Assembly (NCBI GenBank): GCA_038087875.1
Contig: CM075992.1
Coordinates: forward strand, 9,798,001-9,862,000
DNA length: 64,000 nt
Reading direction: 5' to 3'
Origin: Malacoraja senta
Taxonomy: Eukaryota
Shown here: positions 15,253-45,941 of the stretch, in pieces
Layout: each line of letters begins with the position of its first letter
Position numbering within the stretch: the first letter of the stretch is position 1
Made by a program: the position numbers and the translations under genes
The notes under the pieces: generated by a model
What the model was told of the DNA's origin: nothing
The model's database searches: none
The model's input: only the letters and a program-made list of their open reading frames with translations

Positions 15253-16146
15253 GGCACACAAAAATGCTGGAGAAACTCAGCGGGTGCAGCAGCATCTATG
15301 GAGCGAAGGAAATAGGTAACATTTCGGGCCGAAACCCTTCTTCAGACTGATAGGGGGTGGGGAGAAGAAAGGAAAAAAGGAAAAGGCAAAGGAGGAGCCC
15401 GAGGGCTGGGGGAGGGGAGGAGACAACCAGATGGCTGATGAAGGGGAGGGGACAGCCAGGGCTAGCAGAATTGGGAGAATTCAATGTTCAGGCCACCAGG
15501 ATGTAGACTGCCCAAGCGGAATATGAGGTGCATTTCCTCCAATTTACGGTGTTGCTCGCTGTGGCCATGGAGGAGACCCAGGACAGAGAGGTCAGATACG
15601 GAATGGGAGGGGGAGTTGAAGTGCTGAGCCACCGGGAGTTCAGGTTGGTTATTGCGGACCGACCGGAGGTGTTCGGCGAAACGATCGCCAAGCCTCCGCT
15701 TGGTCTCACCGATGTAGATCAGCTGGCATCTAGAGCAGCGAATGCAATAGATGAGGTTGGAGGAGATGCAGGTGAACCTCTGTCGCACCTGGAACGACTG
15801 CTTGGATCCTTGAATGGAGTGGAGGGGGGAGGTGAAGGGACAAGTGTTGCATCTCTTGCGGTTGCAAGGGAAAGTACCAGGGGAGGGGGTGGTATGGGAG
15901 GGAAGGGAAGAATTGACAAGGGAGTTACGGAGGGAGCGGTCTTTGCGGAAGGCAGACATGGGGGGAGATGGGAAGATGTGGCGAGTGGTGGGGTCACGTT
16001 GGAGGTGGCGAAACTGACGGAGGATTACTTGTTGTATGTGACGGCTGGTGGGGTGAAAGGTGAGGACTAGGGGGACTCTGCCTTTGTTGTGAGTGGGGGG
16101 ATGGGGAGAGAGAGAGCAGTGTTGCGGGGTATGGCAGAGACCCTGC
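15253..16146 (-). mobile_element. Penelope-like element 3' part with open GIY-YIG endonuclease frame and pseudo-LTR
   Basis: ORF 15462-16148: CNRKRCNTC zinc-binding region, NLIYCIRCSRCQLIYIGETKRRLGDRFAEH...GLN. Confidence 0.92.
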
Positions 16147-16169
16147 AAATGTGAGGTCTAGTAAGAGTG

Positions 16170-21160: not shown

Positions 21161-22855
21161 TAATAGAAACTTACTACTGCTGCACACTTGTACTGTATTT
21201 GCGATGCTTATCTAAGATGTGTCTATGTACATATGGATAATGATACTTGTACTGAACTGTGTACAACAATGAATTTCACTGTACCTCGATACATATGACG
21301 ATAAAGCACCATACCATACAAATCATAGGAGCAGAATTAGGCCATTTGGTCCATCAAGTCTACTCTGCCATTCCATCATGGCTGATCTATCTTTCCCTCT
21401 CAACCCCATTCTCCTGCCTTCTCCCCATAACCCATGGCACCCGTACTAATCAAGAAACTGTCAATCTCCACCGTAAAAATACCCACTGACTTGGTCTCCA
21501 CAGCCGTCTGTGGCAATGAATTCCACAGATTCACCTCCTCATCTCCTTTCTAAAGTTACATCCTTTTTATACGTTCTTTTAGTTTAGAAATACAACGTGG
21601 AAACAGGCCCTCCGGCCCACCAAGTCCGGGCCGACCAGCGATCCCCGCACACTAGCACTATCCCAACATACACTTGGGACAATTTACAATTATACCAAGC
21701 CAATCGACAAACCTGTACATCTTTGGAGTGAACATTTTCAGGATGTTCCAAGTCTTGAGGTTTAATGGCCATTGATGTGTGTAGAACAGAGTGATGAGAT
21801 TGATTGCACCAGGCTGCAGGGTGATAATCGGCATATTCTCATTGTGTAGGAAAGAACTGCAGATGTTGGTTTAAATCGAAGATAGACACAAAATGTTTGT
21901 GCAACTCAGCGGGACAGGCAGCATCTCTGGAGAGAAGGAATGGGTGAGCATTTTGTGTCTATATTCTCATTGTGTACTGCTCCAGGGCTGCAGCTCTGCT
22001 CACGGTGAGTCTCTGACTACGATGTGCCTTTTGGAGGCAAAAGACAATGCATTGATGTGAGAATCTCGACAAAACATTGCACGGGCCGTGGTTTTATTTG
22101 CTTTTCTTGGCACTCTTTAGAGTCACTGAGCTGTGCAGCATGGAAACAGGCCCTTCGGCCCAGCAGGTCCATGCCGCCCTTTTATCGCATGTACACTGAT
22201 TGTATTTGCTCGTGTTTAGTCCAGATCTTTTTTGCAGTCTCCTTAAACTAAACTAAAAATTAAAACTAAGGTTGTCTGGCTGCTTTTACAACGGGTCATC
22301 AACACATCAGGACACCTCAGTCTTCTCAGTCAATCGTGTATAATAGATAGATTAAACGAGAACTTACCAGTTTGAAGTTTGATCTTTATTTTATGAGGAG
22401 TTACAATGAGTGATTACGTGAAGAACCCCGTCAGTCGGCTTGCGCGTCAATCTTTAAAGCAGCGGTGTGAAACCACAGATAAAACGTAACTGAAGTAACA
22501 TAATAAGAATATAAAACAGACCTTCCAGTTGACCTTTATAATATTGAGGGCCGGGAGCGGTGGGCACGTAATCGCTCAATGTAACTCCTCATAAATTAAA
22601 GATCAAACTTCAAACTGGTAAGTTCTCGTTTAATCTTACTATTTTACTTCGGAGTCACGTGAGTGATTCCGTGAAGAATTCAAAGCTCTGTGATTTCATG
22701 CCGTAGATAGGAATCCAGGCTTCTCACACTGCATCAGTTGACTCAGGAGGAGTGAATAATGAGCAATACAATGAAACATGGTACAGATTAACATGTTGCT
22801 TTAATTCACAAACAAATAAAGAAAAATACAATAGCGACCCCTCTCCCAGGGGAAG

Positions 22856-23832
22856 CTAGGAAACAGAACTTAAAATAAAATTGGTGAACACCCCGGTTTC
22901 GATAAGTGGTTTATTGTAAAACCGGTGAAATGTCAGTTCATTGGACCATCCTGCGGCCGCGAGGATATGGTCTAGAGGGACGTCCATTGCCCTCGCTGCT
23001 GACGTTGATGCCGCCCTGGTGGAGTGAGATTTAAAATTGTCAGTATTAACTCCTGCAAAAACCAATACTTGTTTCAGCCATCTTGAGATGGTCTGGACGG
23101 ACACTTTCCCATGTGTTTTTTTGTGGCTAACAAACAATTGTACTTCCGATCCTCTGAGGCCCTTGGTGACCTCAATATAAGACAACAAGTGCGCCACCAC
23201 ACACAGTCGTAAATCCGTGGGATACGGTGACAGTAAAAGCTTGACTCCTGACACCCCTGGTCTGCTCTGTTTTATGAGATCATATATGTAGAACAGAACG
23301 TCATTTCCAGATGACACCATCCTGTCCAGTCTCAATTTGTGCAGAGACTCTGCGCTGACACTAACGCCATGAGCATAACCAACTTCAAGGCAATCTTTAC
23401 CAAAGACAAGGATGTGGCTGGACCCCACTGTCGAAGCAGCGTGAGTACCACACTGACATCCCAGATTTCTGTATATCTAGGCATGGGGGGATTGGAATTA
23501 AAAACACCCTTCATAAATCGAGATATTAACGGATGAGATCCTACAGACTGTAGTTCTGACCCCAAACATAAATACGACGACAGAGCACTCCTGGCAGTAT
23601 TGATGGCACTATAACTTAAGCCGTCATCAAAATACAATTTGGAGAGAAACTCTAACACATCTGGGATGGAAACTGTGTGGTAAGTAATTTTCTCTTTTAT
23701 GCAAAATGCCTCCCACTTCCTGATATGAGAGAGATACTGCTTTTTTGTACTATCCCTCAAGGATGATGTGATGATGTCCACGGTGCGATTGGATAATCCC
23801 AGACCCAGGTATGGCCTCCTTAAAACCTGCAA
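22856..23832 (-). pseudogene. DIRS tyrosine recombinase in two overlapping frames
   Basis: STKKQYLSHIRKW, YSAINTARSALS, LCVV, SHSTRAAS, AAGWS, FHRFY. Confidence 0.9.
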
Positions 23833-25620
23833 ATTAACAAATTAATACGATCATACAACAGGTATTGATCTCCAGTCACAGGGTTTACTAATAGGTTATG
23901 ACATTTTGGAACCACCATAATTGGCTGAGTTATAATGTCCGAAATGAGAGGGAACCATGGCTGTGTAGGCCAGTCGGGCACCACCAGAACTCCTGAAGCG
24001 GAGTCCTGCTTTATTTTAGTCAAGCACCGACTGATGATGCAGAATGGGGGAAATGCATATATAAACAGTCCTCCCCAATGTAGCGCAAAAGCGTCCACCG
24101 CTACTGCCCCCGTGTCTGGTTCCTATGAAACATACTACGGCACCTGGTGATTGAGTCTGCATGCAAACAAATCAATATCTGGCATCCCATATCGAACAAC
24201 AATATTATTAAATACTTCATGATTCAACATCCATTCTGTGTTGTCATTGAATTTGCGTGATCTGGTGTCTGCCACCATGTTGAACCTGCCCGGCAAGTAA
24301 ACAGCTGAAACCCAAATGTTTCTTTTAATGCACCAATGCCAAATAAGGTTAGCCAATCTGTCACAAGATTGTGACTTGATTCCACCCATATAATTCACAT
24401 ACGCCACTGCTGTGGTGTTGTCAATCTGAATCTGAACATGTAAGTGATGCTTGGTGGTACAATAAGCCTTAAGCCCATAAAATGCTCCCAGTAACTATAA
24501 ATAATTAATTCCATGTGATTGAAGAATAAATGCCTCATGCACATTCCATCTGCCCTCACAGTTAGAGATGGTATCAGTAGCCCCCCAACCTACGGCACTA
24601 ACGTCAGTCTGTAAAACAACTGAAGGTGCTTCAATCAAAATTTTGGTGGAACAATTCGAAATGTTCCTAATCCACCATTGAATTTCAGCAATTGCTTCGA
24701 TTGCCTGCTATAATGGCCTGCATGATTCCTTAGTGCCTGTACCTTTGATCTCTGTAAGTGTTGGTAATGCAAAGGTCCATACTGTGCAGCTGGAAAGGCT
24801 GCTACCAATTTGCCAATCAAGCTGGCCACATGCCTAATTGAAGGTGATTGCTCTGCTAGGAGCTTGATACAGCCTTCAATTAAATCTAATCTCTTGCCCT
24901 TGGGTAGAGTTACAGACATGTGAGTTGAATTAATTGTGAAACCAGATAATCAATAACTTTAACCGGTATCAATTTTGATTTAGTTGGATGAATTAGAAAC
25001 CCCAGACTCTCAAACATGAGTTTAACAGCTTCAACAGATAACCCAGCTGCTTCCCGAGTTTTTCCAATTATTAAGATATCATCTAAATAAGCCATTACAA
25101 TATGACCCTGAACCCGGAGTAGCCCCAAAGCTGGTTTCAGCAGTTTTGTAAATAATCTAGGAGCTGAGGTTAACCCATTAGGCAGTGCTTTAAATTGCCA
25201 CAGCTGCCTCATCCAACTAAATTTCAAATACCTCCAATGGTCTTTATGAACAGGCACTGAGTAATATTAAGATCTATAAATGGCATATAACACCCTTTGG
25301 AAATCAATTGCTTGGCAGTGGCAAAAGTTTCCATCTTGAAATTCCTATACTGCATAAACGGATTAAGGTCCGTCAGGTCCTAAATGATCCGACTACCACC
25401 ATCTTTCTTTGGTCTGGGAAATATGTTAGATACGAATTGATGAGGTTGCCAAACCGTCTTTTCAATTACACCTTTGAGATACAATTTCTCAATTTAAGCC
25501 TGAACCTCCAAGTTCTCTGTTTGTGAGAACACAAGTGCCCTTCTGGGTGAATGTTGAGTAGGTGGACACAAATTTGCAATGAATTAAATGTTAAACCCTT
25601 GTATTGCTTGCAGTATGAAC
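23820..25620 (-). pseudogene. DIRS reverse transcriptase/RNase H/methyltransferase polyprotein remnant
   Basis: YLKFSW...LPNGLTSAPRLFTKLLKP...MAYLDDILI; TDVSAVGWG; DNTTAVAYVN; DLFACRLNHQ; YAFPPF. Confidence 0.9.
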
Positions 25621-33165: not shown

Positions 33166-34231
33166 CTGCCATGTTATAAATAGAATGTTACTTGTAATGG
33201 AAAGGCCTCAGTTTGTTCCACTGGAATATTCCCGTGGATAATATGAATTTCTTGGATGGATGTAATTGATGAGGGATGGTATACTCTCACATCTCCTGCT
33301 TAGTGTTGCTCCACAGTCTGCTGTGGTGCTGAATACTTTTATTTTGACTCATACCTACTGTATGCCAAGGCAAAGACTGATTGTGTAAACCAAACAGATC
33401 CAGCCATAAAGTGAGGCATAGAAATTAAAAGAGTCCCTAATGTAGAGGTTTGGGGGGGAAAGAGAGTTCTCATTTTTATGTAACAAGTTGGTCGGAATTA
33501 TTTTTTGTACCCATGAGGTGAAGCTATTTTCATATGTTCATGAGTCATGGCGGTAGAATTAGGCCATTCGGCCCACCGGGTCTACTCCGCCATTCATTTT
33601 TATTCTGAGGCTGTGCCCTCTGGTCCTAGACTCTCCCACTATATATTTTAATATCATTTTCCTTTTGAAATCCTTTGTCTGTGGATTATGTGTATCGACC
33701 TGTTGGTTTCTAAGATAAAATGAATGTCCACTGCTGTCTTATATAACAGAGTAACTGAGGTACTGGCCTTTGCATTTACCCTAGTCAGGAATGATCTTTA
33801 CAGATGGTTGAATGTTGAGAGAGTCTGGTGATTCCTCGAGTGTACAGGCACAACCACTATCCACTATGTCTATCTCTAAGGTCTATCTATTTCTTATGAG
33901 GATGTCACCAGGACTTGAGGCCCTGAGCTATAGGGAAAGGTTGGGCAGGCTGAATCTTAATTCCTATGCCAGGCTTTGTCCAACCCCTGTTAATCCTGGC
34001 CAAATTGGAGAGGCTAGGACATCAAAATGGGGTAAAAGCTTCAGGGCTGCTGGGACATTTGGTCAATTTGGAATTGCTGTCTGCAGAGCTGGGACAAGCT
34101 GCGGAGTGGTGCCAGTGTGTCTAGAGCCTAGATACAATTTGCAAGAAAAGAATAAGAACATCTGTAGACACTGTCAATTAGGTGAAAAACACATAGAATG
34201 GATTGGATGGCTGCAAACCAGACATACACCT

Positions 34232-35388
34232 TGTAAATAATTGTAAATAATGTTGCAGAGTTTAACTTTGCCGAGTGTTGATTGGATGAGGTATTGAGCC
34301 TTGTCTGGGTTTCCTGCAGATCAGGGTAAATGTTTCTAAGTTGGCTTCCTTGATAAGTACGGTTTGAATACAATGTATTGAACTGCTGTATTATTGGGTT
34401 AGGGAAATGTCTGTTATGTATGGGGTTAATTGATATCTGTAATTGGATTATTAAAGGCTCTGTCTTACCTGTTTGCGGTCATCGGCGGTGAAGCGCGGCG
34501 TCGCCGGTAGCGAGGACCGCTCGGCAACGGCGAGAGCGTCGAGCCTATCCACCGGAGCGCCGCACGGATGGTGCGCGGGGGCCGAGTTAATTCAAACACG
34601 GCGGGTCCCACGTGCTTGCGGTAAGTAAAAAAAGGGCGGGCCGACTGCGATGACGTCGGCCCGCCGCACGTGACTCACCAGCGGCGGCCGTGCCGGCGGC
34701 CATCCTGATCGCGGCGCTGTAGCGGTGGCTGTGCCTGCGGCTGTGCAGCACACGTGCCTCACTGGCGGAGGCGCGTGCCTCACTGGCGGAGGCACGTGCG
34801 TCACTGGCGGAGGCTGTGGCAGTGGAGGTTTGACGCACGGTGCTCGAGCCACACTGGCGGCGGCCCGTGCGAGCGGCCGTGCCGCACTCGTGCATCACTG
34901 GTGGAGGTTGTGCGGTGAGTATTTAGTTTTGGACATTGTCGATTTTATTTTAGCACCGCGCGGTGTTGGGAACACCGCCGCACGGCCCGGGAATTGTACT
35001 TTCTCACGAGTGCGCGGTCTATGGCGGCAGATTCCTCCCGTTTCGCCGCCATAGACCGCAGACTCGTGAGACAGGCCTTTAAGAGACCACCCCCATGTGG
35101 TTCGGCCCCTCGAGGTCCCGGGACATATAAAAGTCCACTACAACGAGGTCCAGCGTCGATCTTCTGGGGGAACGCTTGGGACTGCGTGACTTTCTGGAGT
35201 GTCTCTGTTTGAGCGAGGCCTAGAGGACTTGAACAGGCAGATACGAGGATCAAACCCACGGTGGAATAGGTACAGTAGTTGAACTGTAATGCGCTTTTGT
35301 TAAAATAAAATTTAGTTGTTTCAAGTGCTTGATTCGGTGTTTTTACTGAAACTAGACTGGGGAGAAGCTTAGAAATGAGCAATTTACA
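34232..35388 (+). repeat. 5' LTR (start position inferred)
   Basis: 7-bp terminal inverted repeat TGTAAAT/ATTTACA; TATAAAA 35126-35132; AATAAA 35303-35308; ends in CA just before the PBS. Confidence 0.7.
35126..35132 (+). promoter_or_regulatory. LTR TATA box
   Basis: TATAAAA downstream of the GC-rich U3-like region and about 175 nt upstream of AATAAA. Confidence 0.6.
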
Positions 35389-35389
35389 T

Positions 35390-35407
35390 TGGGGGCTCAT
35401 CCGGCTT
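35390..35407 (+). other. Primer-binding site, tRNA-Pro
   Basis: TGGGGGCTCATCCGGCTT versus the MLV-type PBS-Pro TGGGGGCTCGTCCGGGAT, 15/18 identical. Confidence 0.85.
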
Positions 35408-37885
35408 CTCAAAAGACCCCCAAACACAAGTTTGCGATCAAGGGTGTTGAGCTGTTTCGATCGCGAGTGCAGAAATCGGGCCCACAGTGCAGTTTTTGCA
35501 TTGATTTTCGGCACTTCGTCAGTCGGAGTGGATCGATCATTCGCGGGCTTGGGAAAGGGTCTAATCGAGATCATTAGAACAGAGTCTAGCAAGAACGGGG
35601 GAGTGGTTAGCACGCCTTTGGGTTAGGGGCCCGTAAAACCAGGGTGGGGTTAGAGGCCCTGCTGGGGTTGGGTTTCATTTCCTGGGTTAGAGGCCCAAAA
35701 CTTTGGTCGCAGTTGGCAGACTGCAGCTGATTTAACGAGAGCCAAACGCGCTTCATCGGGTGAGGAGTGGCCCATGGTTAGACTTGGTATCCAATTGGTG
35801 GGGTATTAAAATACAGGTCTGGCCTTCGATCGGATCTGTGCTGGGAGCGTGAAAAGGTGCACTCTGAAAATCGGCATCGATAACTCACAGCGCGAAGCGG
35901 CTAAGCGCTGGATCCTCGGTGCCCAGCCAAGAGGACTGTCTGCGTGAAAGTATCTGAGTCTCTCCCTGAAGTGATGGACGAAGAACCTTGTAAAGGTACT
36001 GGGATTGGATGGACAGAGTACAGCTTGGCCGGAATACTCTAGTCCGTTCAAGAATTCAACTGGGCATTTTTAGTTTGATTCGAGAGGCCGCGTAGTAGAA
36101 GAGATACGCACTGAAATTAGGAGTTGGAGTTCGAGTCTATATTTACAAAGCCAAATTTTCAAACACTGAATTTCATATTGAAGTTCTGCCAGTAAGGTGG
36201 AATTCGAATTCCTGTATATAGAACTTTGGAGTTGGTGCATGTCCGTGATTGATTCCGAATAGCGGCTAATCAACAGTGAATAGTAACCCTCTGGGCAATT
36301 GTTGACTAGAACCTGATAGTGAAGAGTAACTGAGAGATGGGAACCTGGTTTACTTGATGAAAAGTACTCCGAATAGCGAAGGGTACCCCTAATTCTGTCG
36401 AACTGGAGAGGAGAGATAGAGGTCCCCCTATAGAAGTCCAGTCCCCCTAGAGGTCCCCCTATAGAAGTCCAGTCTTAGCAGAGGGATAGTAACATTCGGG
36501 AGGAAAAGTAGTCAATTAAGGAGTTGTACCCCTCAGCAAAGAGTAAACTAGGAAGGGGAAAATCTTTGGTATCAGAGGGAGAGGTTCACTGCGTGATAAC
36601 AGCGTGACGCGGCGTCGAGATCGGGTGTTCGTGAACTGTGCGCTAGTGCTTTAAATCATTTTGTAAATTGTAAAAATCTAGCTTTTCGTATTGCCATAGT
36701 ATCCGGATTTTGTAAATATTCTATGTATGTAAATAAACTTAGAGTATATTAAGAATTAAAAGTTAAGATTCAGATCGTGTTAAGTCCGCGGACCATCATT
36801 TGTGTTGCTGCTTGTGCGAGTGTTTACGGATTTAGAAACTTGAAGTAAGAGTGTGTTTGAGGTAAATATTTATATTTGTTTAAGATCGTTTTGTAAGAAT
36901 CTGAATCGGGGTAGTTCGATCAGGGGTTGTACTCCTTCGATCGCTGTGTCAGGGGAGGAGTCATCCCGCTGATTGATTGTGCCACGAGGAAGATTAATTA
37001 GAGTGGGGTTTACTGGATGCTGACAGTTTATATTGGGGTGTGTTTTGGGTTATTGATAATCAGGGGAATATTTTCATTCTTAATTATAGTTTAGTAAGCT
37101 TGGTACGGATTTGTCTGTCTGTGCAAACTTACAGTGGATTAAGTGAGAGAGAGATTGCTGCGTGAGAGACTGCGATTGAGAGTTAGACTTGGAGTGAGAT
37201 CCTTTGTTTGAAAGTCTGGAATTGAATGCAGTGATTGTGATTTAACCGATAAGAGAGTTGGGAGAGAGACTGAATACGAGCGAGTGGTTTGAATAATTGA
37301 ATAGGAATGACTGGGAAACAGTTGAAAGGGAGCGATTGCTAGAGTAAGTGTGAATCTGAAAGACCGTTGACCATTGTGTGGGAGAGATCCCATTGACCTT
37401 GGAGTCTGAAAGGAAGGAGTGATTGGAAGAGGTGTTAGTGTCTGGAACCTTTATTTTGCAATTTGTGTTGTGACCATTGTTCCGAGAATGGGGAATGTCT
37501 CTGAGAAGGACAGATCAAACAGATTAGAAAGCTCGATAAGGATAATTTGTGGGGAGCTTCCGCATGAAGTGGATACACTGAGGATTATCTGGGGAATTAA
37601 ATGCAATTTTGAAAGAAGAACTTTGGCCATTGGGTGGACTAAAATCTGTAATAGGAATAAACTATATAGAAACGATCATTAAAAAATATGGGAATAGTGA
37701 AGAAGGAAATGAGTTAATTGGGTAATGGAGAATGTTCTTCACTAAAAGAAAAATAAAGAAAGAAATTGTTTTGCTGTCCACCCTAAGAATGGCGGCTTGT
37801 AAATTAGGAATAGGAGGAGAACACGATAGGACTGATCCTTCTCGGGACATTCCTGAGCAGGGACAGGGAGAACTAGTAAGCCAAC

Positions 37886-37886
<1 letters not shown>

Positions 37887-37932
<46 letters not shown>
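37887..37932 (+). repeat. (CAGGAG)n hexamer repeat, in frame (QE)n
   Basis: seen directly. Confidence 0.9.
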
Positions 37933-37933
<1 letters not shown>

Positions 37934-38589
37934 GGAGAGTGTCATGTTTTGAAAGGGAGACTACTGAGCCGACGAAAACTAAATCTGTTAAATTCGGTAA
38001 GAGTGGAACAGGGTCTGCATATCTTGAAGGGAGAGATATTTACTATATGCCAGGGTGTACAGAATTCTTCGGAGTGGAGCTAGAGCCACAGTATTCCTCA
38101 CAGAACTCTCATGTTCCCAATTCGGAGAAACCATGCGCAGCTTGCAAGCAGGGCACATGGGAGGAATCAGCGTTATTTTAAGAAAGGCGGGAGAGAGAAA
38201 ACAGGAAGATGCTGGAGTCAATTATAAAAGATGAAATAGCCGCACATTTGGATAGCAGTAACAGGATCGGTCCAAGTCAGCATGGATTACGAAGGGGAAT
38301 CATGCTTGACTAATCTTCTGGAAATGTTTGAGGATGTAACTAGGAAAATGGACAAGGGAGAACCAGTGGATGTAGTGTACCTGGACTTTCAGAAAGCATT
38401 TGATAAGGTCCCACATAGGAGATTAGAGGGGCAAAATTGGGGCGCATGGTATTGGGGGTAGAGTGCTGACATGGATAGAAAATTGGTTGGCAGACAGGAA
38501 ACAAAGAGTAGGGATTAACGGGTCCCTTTCAGAATGGCAGGCAGGTAGTGGGGTACTGCAAGGCTCGGTGCTGGGACCGCAGCTATTTA

Positions 38590-39380
38590 GAATAGAATAG
38601 AATGCCTTTAATTGTCATTCAAACAGCTTGGTTTGACCAAAATTGCATTTTCTACAGTCTTAACAATTACAAAAAAAAACAAGACCCACACTTAACACAC
38701 TTTACACAAACATCCATCACAATGAATCTCCAACACCTCCTCACTGTGATGGAAGGCAAAACTCTTCCCTTGTTCTTCTCCCATGGTCCAGCAGTCCAAC
38801 TGCATTCGTCGAGGTGAACTGGGGCTCCCGATGTTAAAGCCCCCGGCAGGCGATGGTAAGTCCAGCGGCTGTTAAGCCACACCGGGCGATGTTAGGCCCC
38901 GCTCCAAGTCATTTCACCCCTCGATTCCAGCAGGAGAAGTTGCTGTTGATGGAGCTCCGAAAAGCGGTCTCCCACCAGGGACCTGCGAGCTCCCGATGTT
39001 ACCGTCCACAGGGCCCGCAGCCAGAGCCTCCGAAGCTCTGAGTCAGGTTGCAGCCGCGCGCCACCACAGCTCCTCCCGCTCCAAAGTCGGCCAGCTCCGC
39101 GATGGCAGGTCCGCAGGCTCCACGACTGGAGCCCTCAGGTTAGTTCCGGCAGGAGGCCGCCGCCGGCTTCATGATGTTAGGCCCAACGACATCGGAGACA
39201 CGACAGGGAAAAAGTCGGGTCCCCGAATGGGGAAGAGATTAACGGTTTCCCCCATCCACCCCTCACATATACACAGCTAAAAAATAATAAAAACTAGAAT
39301 CAAAAACATACACTTAACGAGACAAAAATTAAAAAAAGACAGAGGGACTGTAGTCGAGCCGCTGCCGTTAGGCGCCACCA
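38590..39380 (-). mobile_element. Non-coding GC-core retroposon nested in CR1
   Basis: GCCTTCCATCACAGTGAGGAGG tail module, (ATTCT)n end, ATTTA on both flanks. Confidence 0.65.
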
Positions 39381-39561
39381 TACCACACCATTTACCATAT
39401 ACATCAATGATTTGGATGAAGGGATTCAAAGTTAGCAAAGTAGCAAATTTGCAGACGACACAAAGCTGGGTGGCAGTGTGTACTGTGAGGAGGATGCGAT
39501 GAGAATGTAGGGTGACTTGGACAGGTTGGGGGAGTGGGCAGATGCATGGCAGATTAAGTTT

Positions 39562-39848
39562 ATGTTTTTTCTTTTTCTTTTGTCTTTTTATCTTTGCTTT
39601 TTTAAAAAACATTTATAAGTTCCCTTTTAAAGATTTAACTATATTTACATAGAGACCGGGAGGTCTATATTCATTGTGTATTTTGACACTGGTCTCATGT
39701 TAGGTTATACCTGTTATTAATGTAATCCTGATCCCTATGTATCAATACCATTGTTATGTTTATCATTATTCTTTTTGCTCTGTTTTTTATGTTTTATTTT
39801 TGTTTTTGTTTTTTGGAAAAAAAACAATAAAAAGATTTTAAAATAAAG
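39562..39848 (+). mobile_element. L1-type 3' UTR/poly(A) insert nested in CR1
   Basis: T-rich body, AATAAA plus A-rich end, flanking AAGTTTA(A)TGT duplication. Confidence 0.55.
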
Positions 39849-40987
39849 AAGTTTAATGTGGATAAATGTGAGGCTATCCACTATGGTATCAAAAACAGGA
39901 AGGCAGATTATTATCTAAATGGTGTCAAGTTGGGAAAAGGGGAAGTACAACGGGATCTGGGGGTTCTTGTTCATCAGTCTATGAAAGTAAGCATGCAGGT
40001 ACAGCAGGCAGTGAAGAAAGCGTATGGCATGTTGGCCTTTATAACAAGAGGAGTCGTGTATTGGAGCAAGGAGGTCCTTCTGCAGTTGTACAGGGCCCTA
40101 GTGAGACCACACCTGGAGTATTGTGTGCAGTTTTGGTCCCCTAATTTAAGGAAAGACATTCCTGCTATTGAGGGAGTGCAGCATAGGTTTACAAGGTTAA
40201 TTCCTGGGATGGCGGGACTGTCATATGCTGAGAGAATGGAGCGGCTGGGCTCATTGGAGTTTAGAAGGATGAGAGGGTATCTTATTGAAACATATAAGAT
40301 TGTTAGCGGTTTGGGCACGTTAGAGGCAGGAAACACGTACCCGATGTTGGGGGAGTCCAGAACCAGGGGCCACAGTTTAAGAATAAGGGTTAAGCCATTT
40401 AGAATGGAGACGAGGAAACACTTTTTCTCACAGAGAGTTGTGAGTCTGTGGAATTCTCTTCCTCAGAGGGCAGTAGAGGCCGGATCTCTGGATACTTTCA
40501 AGAGAGAGCTAGATAGGGCTCTTAAAGATAGCGGAGTCAGGGGATATGGGGAGAAGGCAGGAACGGGGTACTGATTGGGGATGATCAGCCATGATCGCAT
40601 TGAATGGCGATGGCTCAAAGGGCCGAATGTCCTACTCCTGCACCTATTGTCTATTGTCTATCTTCGGCTCCTCCTCCTAAATGTAAATCTGAAGTAGAGA
40701 CATCGTGGAGAGATCCTCTATCTCCTATGATTGCCCCACAAGTGGAGGACAGTAGGGGAAATCAAGGAGCTAGAAGGAAGACTCCATCGACATGGGTGCC
40801 AAAATTAATTCGGAACTCCAATAGCTGGAGGTTGACGGAATCTTTCTTGAAGTACCGGGATAGAACAAATTGCTTTTCAGAGGGTGAGATAGGAGGGGAG
40901 GAAAATATGGATGGATTGATCCGGACATGGATAATATCATTATGTCAGAGTGATTCACCGATGATGGGATTTAGAATGGACAGTATG

Positions 40988-41079
40988 TTTGTAAATAAAA
41001 TTTAGTTGTTGCAAGTGCTTGCTTCAGTGTTTTTACTGAAACTAGACTGGGGGGGAAGCTTAGAAATGAGCAATTTATA
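40988..41079 (+). repeat. 3' LTR remnant (poly(A) signal plus U5-like end)
   Basis: direct repeat of about 35296-35388 with roughly 5 substitutions and 2 small indels. Confidence 0.85.
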
Positions 41080-41107
41080 CCCCACATTCTTTCCAGCTTT
41101 TGCTGGA

Positions 41108-41452
41108 TAGTTTAGTTTAGAGATACAGCGCGGTTACAGGCCCATCGGCCCTCCGAGTCCATATCGACCTGCGATCCACGCACATTACCATATGCCTACA
41201 CACATGAGTGACAATTTACACTTACGGTCAATTTAAAGTGATACCAAGCACACAAACCCAAGCCAATTTACCTACAAACCTGTACGTCCTTGGAGTGTGG
41301 GAGGATACCAAAGATCTCGGAGAAAACCCACGCGGTCATGGGGAGAATGTACAAACTCCGTACAGACAGCACCTGTAGTCAGGATCGAACCCGGGTCTGT
41401 GGGTCTGCAAGTGCAGGAAGGCAGCAACTCTACCGTTATGCCACCGTGCCAC
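41108..41452 (-). mobile_element. HE1/V-SINE-like SINE
   Basis: reverse-complement SINE motifs. Confidence 0.8.
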
Positions 41453-42256
41453 CCATACCGTCCTCCTATATTATTATCATTCAGATGAAGGTTCCCGACC
41501 CGAAACATCACCTATCCATGTTCTCCAGAGATGCTGCCTCACCCTCCCCAATCTTTGCACATCCCAAATCCTGGACTTTCCACTCATCACTTTAATTTCA
41601 TGTTCCATGTATCTTCTTGTGTTTTATGGCTATTGGCAGACCAATTTCCCTCCTGGGATAAATAAAGTTTGATTGTATCATATTGTATCATATGGTATCG
41701 TATCTGGGGCTTATAACACGCCAGGTGCAGGGCCAAGTGGCCTGCCAGTTGGGTTTATGGACACTTGTTGCTGGGCCTCTGGTCCTGGAATTGGGATCAA
41801 TGGCAACTTTGAGCCTCTGGTCCTGGAGTGATGCAGACTGGTCTCTCAGCCGTTTGAGCCAATGGGCAAATGGAACGAGCTTGGATGGGGCATCTTGGTC
41901 AGCATGGATGAATGTAAACACAATAAGCTGGAGTAACTCAGCGGGACAGGCAATATCACTGAAGAAGGGTCGTGACCCGAAATGTCACCCATTCCTTCTC
42001 TGCAGAGGTGCTGCTTGTCCTCCTGAGTTACTCCAGCTTTTTGTGTCTATCTTCAGTTTAAACCAGCATCTGCAGTTTCTTCCTGCACAAATAGTCTGAA
42101 GGGGTTGTTTCCATACTGAATGGTTCTATGATTCAATGACCTGTTCTACTCATGTATGGTTTGATTGCACTCATCATGTATTGTATTATTTACCTGGATT
42201 GCACGCAAACAAAGTTGTTCTCTGTATAATAAATGACTACCAGATGTGGGTGGTAT

Positions 42257-45133: not shown

Positions 45134-45161
45134 AACGTTTCGGGCCGAAACCCTTCTTCAG
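45134..45161 (-). ncRNA. Minimal hammerhead-ribozyme-like core in a Penelope pseudo-LTR
   Basis: minus strand reads CTGAAGA-A-GGGT-TTCG-GCCC-GAAA-CGTT; stem I is weak. Confidence 0.5.
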
Positions 45162-45941
45162 ACTGATGTAGCGTGGGGAGGAGGGGGGGGGGGGGGTTGG
45201 AAGAAGAAAGGAAGAGGAGGAGCCAGAGGGCTGAGCGAGAGCTGAGAAGGGGAGGTGACAATAAGGGGTACCGGAAATTGGAGGTCAATGTTTATGCTGC
45301 TGGGGTATAAACTGCCCAAGCGAAATATGAGGTGCTGTTCCTCCACTTTCCGGTGGTGCTCACTTGGGCCATGGAGGAGGCCCAGGACAGAAAGGTCGGA
45401 TTCGGAATGGGAGGGGGAGTTGAAGTGCTGAGCCACCAGGAGATCAGGTTGGTTATTGCGGACCGAGCGGAGGTGTTCGGGGAAATGATCGCCAAGCCTA
45501 CGCTTGGTCTCACCGATGTAGATCAGCTGACATCCAGAGCAGCGGATGCAATAGATGAGGTTGGAGGAGGTGCAGGTGAACCTCTGTCGCACCTGGAATG
45601 ACTGCTTGGGTCCTTGAATGGAGTCGAGGGGGGAGGTAAAGCGACAAGTGTAGCATTGTGCGACAGAAAATGTGAGACAGACACAAAAAGCTGGAGTAAC
45701 TCAGCGGGTCAGGCAGCATCAGGTCCAGAGAAAAGGAATGGGTGACGTTTCGGGTCGAGGCCCATCTTCGGACTGAGAGTCCAGGGGAGAGGGAAACGAG
45801 AAATATGAAAAGGTACCTGGAAGAAATGAATGACAGACATGCTAAAGGAATCACAGAGGGAGAGCTGTGAGGGAGGGCTCTCCCTCAGCCCTTTGGCCCC
45901 TCCTCTTCCTTTCTTCTTCGCGCCCCCCCCACCCTACATCA

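Follow-up and report, generated by a model that had tools for sequence, protein, structure and literature searches.

How a retroviral lineage could go on replicating with a Gag that has no capsid, and what such a protein was good for, are the questions raised by an endogenous retrovirus (ERV) in Malacoraja senta. The copy in question lies at positions 33988 to 41079 of a 64,000-nucleotide stretch of contig CM075992.1 (9,798,001 to 9,862,000 of the forward strand), which we call the window and from whose first letter all coordinates given without a locus name are counted. By itself this copy is dead and an ordinary fossil, and the answers come from its relatives. The lineage to which it belongs has long terminal repeats (LTRs), a tRNA-Pro primer-binding site (PBS), a 4-bp target-site duplication (TSD), paired and solo copies and a selected Gag, and it has neither a capsid nor a working pol; env-less helpers of the same age share its R-U5, PBS and leader. 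With a probability of roughly 60%, we propose that this was a non-autonomous class I lineage that used the capsid and enzymes of its helpers, and that the truncated Gag served as a cis-acting loader of its own RNA.

The relatives of the window copy fall into four layouts. Group A, its own, has a gag without a capsid, and group S, found with a little-skate protein described below, is a skate-like, more diverged capsid-less sister group. Group B, the helper, carries gag, protease, an insert of ~130 amino acids, reverse transcriptase (RT), RNase H and integrase, followed by ~300 bp and the LTR, without env. Group C combines a window-type LTR with a gag that includes the capsid, and no family pol was found in 16 of 16 tiles. 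First-look searches, whose candidates are search matches and not copy numbers and of which only the top-ranked copies were sampled, returned 3891 candidates for R-U5 plus leader, 2127 for the window-type U3, 893 for the helper integrase end, 452 for the group C capsid, 252 for the window-type gag start (the matrix end) and 209 for the spacer-knuckle junction.

Members of the family have a TG...CA LTR pair, a PBS, a polypurine tract and a short TSD, which is exact at 4 bp in 15 of the 19 complete copies and at 5 bp in none of them (complete copies being those with both ends within one tile; two rows are near-duplicates). The PBS matches tRNA-Pro at 18 of 18 positions in 12 of 27 rows of other copies, some rows being the same copy twice, and the tRNA-Pro(TGG) genes of the host end in the complement of the PBS. 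Nineteen other top U3 matches comprised ten solo LTRs (six with an exact 4-bp duplication), five 5' LTRs and four 3' LTRs; paired and solo copies, whose lack a preliminary description of the locus had named as a reason to abandon its reading, are thus both abundant. Divergence within LTR pairs overlaps among groups A (0.048-0.082, n=6), B (0.052-0.070, n=5) and C (0.061-0.117, n=7), and therefore suggests that helper and riders were active together. A value near 0.065 corresponds to ~15 million years at 2.2e-9 and to ~150 million years at 2.2e-10 substitutions per site and year, both rates being those given in PMC4422223.

The Gag of groups A and S is laid out as matrix, spacer and zinc knuckle in a single frame, with no pol or env; behind it lie only scraps of RT and integrase, which show descent from an autonomous ancestor. 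Capsid queries (five capsid sequences plus skate and catshark gag-pol) matched none of the 26 group A tiles in gag at E<=0.05, the one 30-amino-acid match (E 0.019) lying in an LTR, and none of the 20 group S tiles in gag. A like query matched 16 of 16 group C tiles. The N-terminal ~110 amino acids and the knuckle of group A align to helper Gag at 30-50%, and the Met-Gly start is kept in the Gag of both A and B. In the fuller A frames Pfam recognised only zf-CCHC, and a query of the ESM Atlas with the A Gag or its N-terminal domain yielded nothing usable, a result that shows neither novelty nor absence. The spacer of ~300 amino acids is 27% hydrophobic and 64% disorder-promoting, as compared with 41% and 44% for the helper capsid, and the fold model of the A Gag (pLDDT 38.7) has an N-terminal helical domain and only two helices in the spacer.

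The sole match among proteins of near length is XP_055498707 of the little skate, which is colinear over spacer and knuckle, has no capsid, and matches group A at 48% over 317 columns and group S at up to 81-83%. Many copies can be aligned colinearly with almost all of it. A profile search yielded nothing more than short unnamed pieces and generic knuckles. Across the A gag region, contigs from three organisms, one of which may be the source of the window, cover every one of 30 bins.

When group A was compared with 20 copies of group S or intermediate type, the median ratio of nonsynonymous to synonymous substitution rates (dN/dS) was 0.25 (0.18-0.35) at a dS of 0.5-1.8, with 0.16 for the matrix, 0.14 for knuckle plus tail and 0.35 for the spacer. 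Within group A (25 copies; non-CpG substitutions, one natural frame as reference), substitutions shared by at least three copies numbered 66 nonsynonymous and 58 synonymous versus 478 and 150 private ones, an odds ratio (OR) of 0.36 (p 6e-7) that remained at 0.44 (p 1e-4) after stratification by transition and transversion. By domain, the OR was 0.25 for the matrix, 0.47 for the spacer and 0.19 for knuckle plus tail. Eight wrong-frame or non-coding controls gave 0.75-1.96, the helper RT gave 0.13, and three other references for the within-A comparison gave 0.39-0.50 (p 3e-4 to 0.014); the corresponding test for the group C gag was underpowered (OR 0.39-1.10). Shared frameshifts occur at 2.1 per kb in gag versus 6.7-9.8 per kb in leader and post-gag DNA, and the stops and frameshifts of the sampled A copies are mostly private. 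In a matrix tree of 41 rows the copies form a ladder from S to A, separate from B and C. Judged from these substitution patterns, the amino acids of Gag were under purifying selection during a time in which the lineage was replicating with no capsid, and we consider it very probable that a capsid-less Gag was the selected product.

The relatives that share R-U5, PBS and leader with the window copy encode a retroviral protease (RVP), RT, RNase H and an integrase with an MLVIN_C domain. The helper RT scores 243 bits against the RT of murine leukemia virus (MLV) type, 144 against foamy virus, 120 against Ty3 and 78 against one solved polymerase, which we take to be that of HERV-K. Its nearest proteins come from catsharks, skates and a sevengill shark (64-71%), most other vertebrates reaching 46% or less. 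In a quick, midpoint-rooted tree of 56 selected rows it falls in an 8-row chondrichthyan clade (SH-aLRT 100) and outside the 15-row clade that holds Rauscher MLV; its neighbours are fish, amphibian and reptile ERVs, and no named epsilon reference was among the matches. Membership of the family in the class I ERVs is close to certain, and to this extent the earlier assignment to a class I ERV of cartilaginous fish stands. Its qualifier "gammaretrovirus-like" is too narrow, as the RT position outside the MLV-containing clade indicates that the family is not a gammaretrovirus proper.

Gag and pol of group B lie in one frame, with a TGA right before the pol frame in 9 of the 10 frames shown, a layout that suggests stop-codon read-through. 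The central part of the helper Gag models as a retroviral capsid (core pLDDT 80-95; best match MLV CA 6hwx, E 5.7e-5). The ~130-amino-acid segment between protease and RT (L075:4629-5348) contains two H-x-T motifs, is also present in skate and wrasse ERVs and has no Pfam hit; presumably it is a 2H phosphodiesterase. In 19 of the 20 group B tiles the integrase leads directly to the LTR in ~300 bp without env, in a sample drawn with a query that included the 3' flank of the integrase and that could hide rare env-bearing members. Other env-bearing ERVs are present in the host genome (78 TLV_coat matches). Of 20 such loci examined, 19 have no DNA in common with the family, and the remaining one has nothing of it beyond a neighbouring LTR; their RT or integrase is 27-49% identical to that of the helper. 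The loss of env in the family was, we infer, secondary.

Some further observations on these loci may be recorded here. The env-bearing class I families are multi-copy and unrelated to the window family (L131, L132, L140-L144), and several TLV_coat matches lie in stop-free frames of ~600-690 amino acids, suggesting younger families. A repeated env-like element with a 394-amino-acid frame (L133, L136-L139, L141 and others) has only integrase fragments nearby and no RT match in the tile, and may be an env-only non-autonomous ERV. Helper copies (L033, L034, L036:1980-2260) have, past the stop of integrase, a pyrimidine tract that ends in CAG together with a short stretch led by ATG, a segment that resembles a leftover env splice acceptor and of which 125 bp are common to A, C and S. 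One helper copy (L012:138-3875) is interrupted between integrase and LTR by a 3.7-kb insertion that contains 165-bp direct repeats and a frame with an IQ motif. Group C (L027, L030, L115-L130) has LTR, leader and post-gag DNA in common with A, and could have supplied capsid to the capsid-less copies. In copy L028:4400-6200, which has paired LTRs and an ATAG duplication, a C-type matrix and spacer adjoin the post-gag region, capsid and knuckle both being absent; the copy is either a separate deletion form or a recombinant.

The relation between riders and helper is further illuminated by the mosaic structure of the window copy. Over R-U5 and leader it is 0.89-0.91 identical to B and C, 0.92 to other A copies and 0.83 to S, and its gag, which cannot be aligned to that of B or C, is 0.75 identical to that of S. 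Since retroviral recombination requires co-packaged RNAs, this mosaic points to shared particles, and the family appears from its sequences to recombine freely. The long non-coding leader (35389-37487) can be divided into a part common to the helper and to the capsid-bearing gag-only copies of group C (35389-37005), within which the packaging signal likely lies, and a part restricted to the A/S lineage (37006-37487).

We suggest the following course for the replication of a group A element. RNA polymerase II would transcribe it from the LTR, and the truncated Gag would be translated from the transcript. While translation is under way, the nascent knuckle would attach to the leader of its own element, and the matrix would carry the bound RNA to the site of helper Gag assembly. 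Priming by tRNA-Pro and integration would be carried out by helper enzymes, the element spreading within cells in capsids and with enzymes borrowed from its env-less gag-pol relatives, while template switching among co-packaged RNAs would keep its cis signals matched to the helper. In a replicating, dispersed lineage under selection, functions that help the encoding RNA should be favoured, and binding of the own leader with delivery to helper Gag would be the simplest role for a matrix and a knuckle. As to transcription, 435 poly(A) reads of another organism, drawn from ~6% of the run and for the most part 85-95% alike, favour the sense strand over the LTR and gag start and skip a transposon inserted in the window LTR.

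Several points weigh against this proposal. The same poly(A) reads are low in number and, elsewhere in gag, of mixed strand, and they are weak family-level evidence, silent on the window locus; production of the truncated Gag and its binding of RNA are predictions from sequence. The name matrix is owed to the position of the domain, its Gly2 start, its helices and its identity of 35-50% to the N-termini of helper Gag; neither Pfam nor the Atlas gave a hit. Foldseek found nothing at E<=0.001 for the low-confidence A model, which makes its missing capsid match weak evidence. As for selection, dN/dS was calculated by NG86 with no transition correction, all pairs share one reference and are not independent, and the protein-guided alignment favours matches. 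Within A, the signal is not significant with the other references at a five-copy threshold (p 0.11-0.24), nor with transversions alone, for which counts are small. Sampling of top hits could also miss rarer capsid-bearing A-type or env-bearing B-type copies.

Of the other explanations, the one that survives best assigns the truncated Gag a role in trans, in which it would co-assemble with or block helper Gag and so tune or restrain the helper, by interference or by restriction. Matrix and knuckle, the two most constrained parts, would compete for membrane and RNA, and truncated Gags that inhibit transposition do exist, such as p22 of Ty1 (PMC4551931). Yet selection acted along a dispersed replicating lineage, as seen in the ladder-like matrix tree and the shared alleles, rather than on one fixed locus; the sampled copies have mostly private stops and frameshifts; and a purely trans effect would presumably not favour the encoding RNA. 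We regard such a role as unlikely.

A lower probability still is given to the view that the signal was inherited from unsampled capsid-bearing parents, through repeated capsid loss or a gag refreshed by recombination, and that the capsid-less protein was never functional. Free recombination in the family, the capsid-less C-type copy L028 and the confinement of sampling to top hits are all in line with it. However, the capsid is absent in 46 of 46 A and S tiles and in the skate protein, that protein is colinear with many copies over nearly its full length, and the matrix-end and spacer-knuckle candidates are similar in number (252 and 209), so that we find this view improbable.

Little chance is left to the possibility that translation alone matters, an inert protein being encoded by a frame whose openness shields the RNA against decay or silencing. 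The rarity of shared frameshifts in gag, at the densities given above, fits it, but it predicts no missense constraint and is largely refuted by the dN/dS of matrix and knuckle (0.14-0.16) and its higher value in the spacer (0.35). It is very improbable, too, that the spacer hides a highly diverged capsid, which would make the element a gag-only ERV of the ordinary sort, as Bik-1 and group C are. The spacer is long enough and is constrained, and the A fold model is too weak to exclude a capsid. The composition of the spacer is nevertheless unlike that of the helper capsid, only two helices are predicted in it, and alignment to helper Gag still succeeds for matrix and knuckle but fails for the capsid, which is usually the most conserved Gag domain. 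Finally, a Gypsy- or BEL-type LTR retrotransposon, whose pol in the relatives the preliminary description had named as the finding that would overturn it, would suit the env-less helpers and the 4-bp TSD, which is also found in Gypsy elements, but is refuted by the MLV-type RT with twice the score of Ty3, the MLVIN_C and RVP domains, the MLV-like capsid, the RT tree and the in-frame stop between gag and pol.

The cis-acting loader thus remains the preferred reading, and a longer history can be sketched from it. The lineage is long-lived and likely one of rays and skates. More tentatively, at slightly less than even odds, the capsid was dropped once, long ago, and the lineage persisted across rays and skates as a dedicated RNA-loading adaptor that swapped LTR and leader to track successive env-less helpers, in a system of three tiers: gag-pol helper, capsid donor and capsid-less rider.

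In the window copy, the LTRs with their signals, the PBS, the leader, the gag pieces and an inserted long interspersed nuclear element (LINE) are all read on the forward strand. The 5' LTR (TGTTAA...TTTACA) occupies 33988-35388. The preliminary description had placed its start at 34232 and its length at 1.15 kb, but other copies begin at the position matching 33988 (TGTTAA), and the true length is ~773 bp once a 624-bp transposon is removed. With the corrected start, the flanks reported with doubt as ACCT versus CCCC become a perfect pair of CCCC duplications (33984-33987 and 41080-41083), of the 4 bp usual in the family. Other elements of that description were accurate: the TATA-like box ATATAAAA at 35125-35132, the AATAAA at 35304-35309, and the LTR end TTTACA at 35383-35388 followed by a single T and the PBS-Pro at 35390-35407 (15/18 match).

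The gag-like frame, also reported correctly, opens at ATG 37488. Its 5' part (37488-38179) comprises the Met-Gly start, the matrix-like helical domain and a Q/E-rich spacer, and is cut by a 5'-truncated CR1-type LINE (38180-40658) that holds nested repeats at ~38594-39389 and 39563-39849; we take the LINE to be CR1 from its RT-like frame and tandem 3' tail. The spacer resumes at 40659-40981 and stops at a deletion of ~3.4 kb, which took the zinc knuckle, the decayed pol region, the polypurine tract, U3 and R. The second LTR end noted earlier is the U5 remnant of the 3' LTR at 40988-41079, which ends in TTTATA and repeats the last ~90 bp of the 5' LTR at 92% identity (Kimura two-parameter divergence 0.057 over 91 bp). 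The gag is broken by a frameshift and stops, and the transposon, the LINE and the deletion are damage that followed insertion. Pol and env were looked for in this copy and neither was found, as first reported. Rfam gave no match over 33500-41800, and Pfam no family for the copy's own gag pieces. The suggestion that RT-based screens would miss the element holds for this copy only and fails for the family, in which pol-bearing copies are common (the 893 integrase-end candidates). What had been overlooked were the 2.5-kb LINE with its nested repeats, the deletion that leaves only U5 of the 3' LTR, and the non-autonomous lineage with its selected capsid-less Gag.

The segment at 34455-35078 in U3, a DNA transposon resembling a miniature inverted-repeat transposable element (MITE) with AGG...CCT ends, is recognised as a separate mobile insertion because it is missing from other LTR copies and is flanked on both sides by a TTAA duplication (34451-34454 and 35079-35082). 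It forms a repeat family of its own, with 2624 first-look candidates, 40 of which were scored at 87-100%. TTAA is present on both sides in two of six MITE loci and near-TTAA in the remaining ones. The Kolobok group is described in PMC6004289 as having a TTAA target and RR termini, and T2-MITE as having an AGGRR terminus. The ends of the present element (AGGCT/AGGCC) fit RR termini and not AGGRR, and from target and ends it appears to be Kolobok-like. This GC-rich family is younger than the ERV, with copies up to 98% alike, and a relative at 70% also sits in the LTR of another copy (L023:995-1570).

Elsewhere in the window, an inverted pair of fragments (128-1800 and 22559-24322) has RNase H-like and tyrosine-recombinase-like frames and presumably derives from a DIRS-type retrotransposon. 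Frames with a GIY-YIG-like "YIGETKR" motif at 15462-16157 and 45158-45700 are, we assume, fragments of Penelope-type elements. Degenerate telomere-like (TTAGGG/CCCTAA) arrays lie in the interior of the contig at 50583-50674, 51205-51277 and 52230-52259.

We found no account of the window family or of a selected capsid-less Gag in the literature; Repbase and Dfam lay outside this search and may hold a consensus entry. Non-autonomous ERVs are usually non-coding or have a capsid-forming Gag, whereas the A/S lineage keeps a selected matrix and nucleocapsid without a capsid. A selected Gag of this kind implies that RNA selection or delivery is a Gag function separable from building the shell, and it provides a natural experiment on cis-preference in retroviral packaging, until now mainly shown for mouse IAP 1Δ1. 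An "uncharacterized" gene model of the skate is, in addition, accounted for as derived from an ERV: Leucoraja erinacea LOC129701504 (XP_055498707), annotated as an uncharacterised host protein, has the same spacer-knuckle layout without a capsid, in a gene model that leaves out the matrix part.

Among known systems, the satellites VL30 and ETn are, to our knowledge, not known to keep a selected Gag, and group A differs from them in this respect. It resembles the VL30/MLV and ETn/MusD pairs, as outlined in PMC6466679, in that a non-autonomous partner shares terminal and packaging sequences with a coding-competent helper. Like the class I lineages II and III of elephant-shark CmiERVs, the family consists of class I ERVs of a cartilaginous fish. 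By the description in PMC4422223, CmiERVs are defined by a downstream env and are few, whereas the window family is env-less and high-copy and has non-autonomous satellites; rays can hold large env-less ERV families that env-dependent screens would miss. Some epsilon-like fish ERVs carry a CNPase domain, according to PMC4977317, and the helper has its two-H-x-T segment between protease and RT.

Closer parallels are zebrafish BHIKHARI Bik-1/Bik-2 and chicken ENS-1, which likewise have a lone gag frame between LTRs and neither pol nor env, are accompanied by many solo LTRs and rely on partners. According to PMC12067270, however, the Gags of Bik-1 (a lokiretrovirus relative) and ERNI keep the capsid that groups A and S lack; group C is the true parallel of these gag-only ERVs, and the helper RT is of class I, unlike the lokiretrovirus ancestry of Bik-1. 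The nearest precedent for the proposed function is mouse IAP 1Δ1, a class II, env-less, non-autonomous element of the intracisternal A-particle (IAP) family, whose fusion protein promotes retrotransposition of the element in cis, with Gag and Pol needed in trans, as reported in PMC6466679 and PMC7411935. Both are partly deleted elements that keep an open frame. IAP 1Δ1 has a Gag-Pol fusion that arose by a 1.9-kb deletion; group A is a class I element with matrix, spacer and knuckle and no Pol part, and, unlike IAP 1Δ1, the A/S lineage has diverged to a dS above 1 and is shared with a skate.

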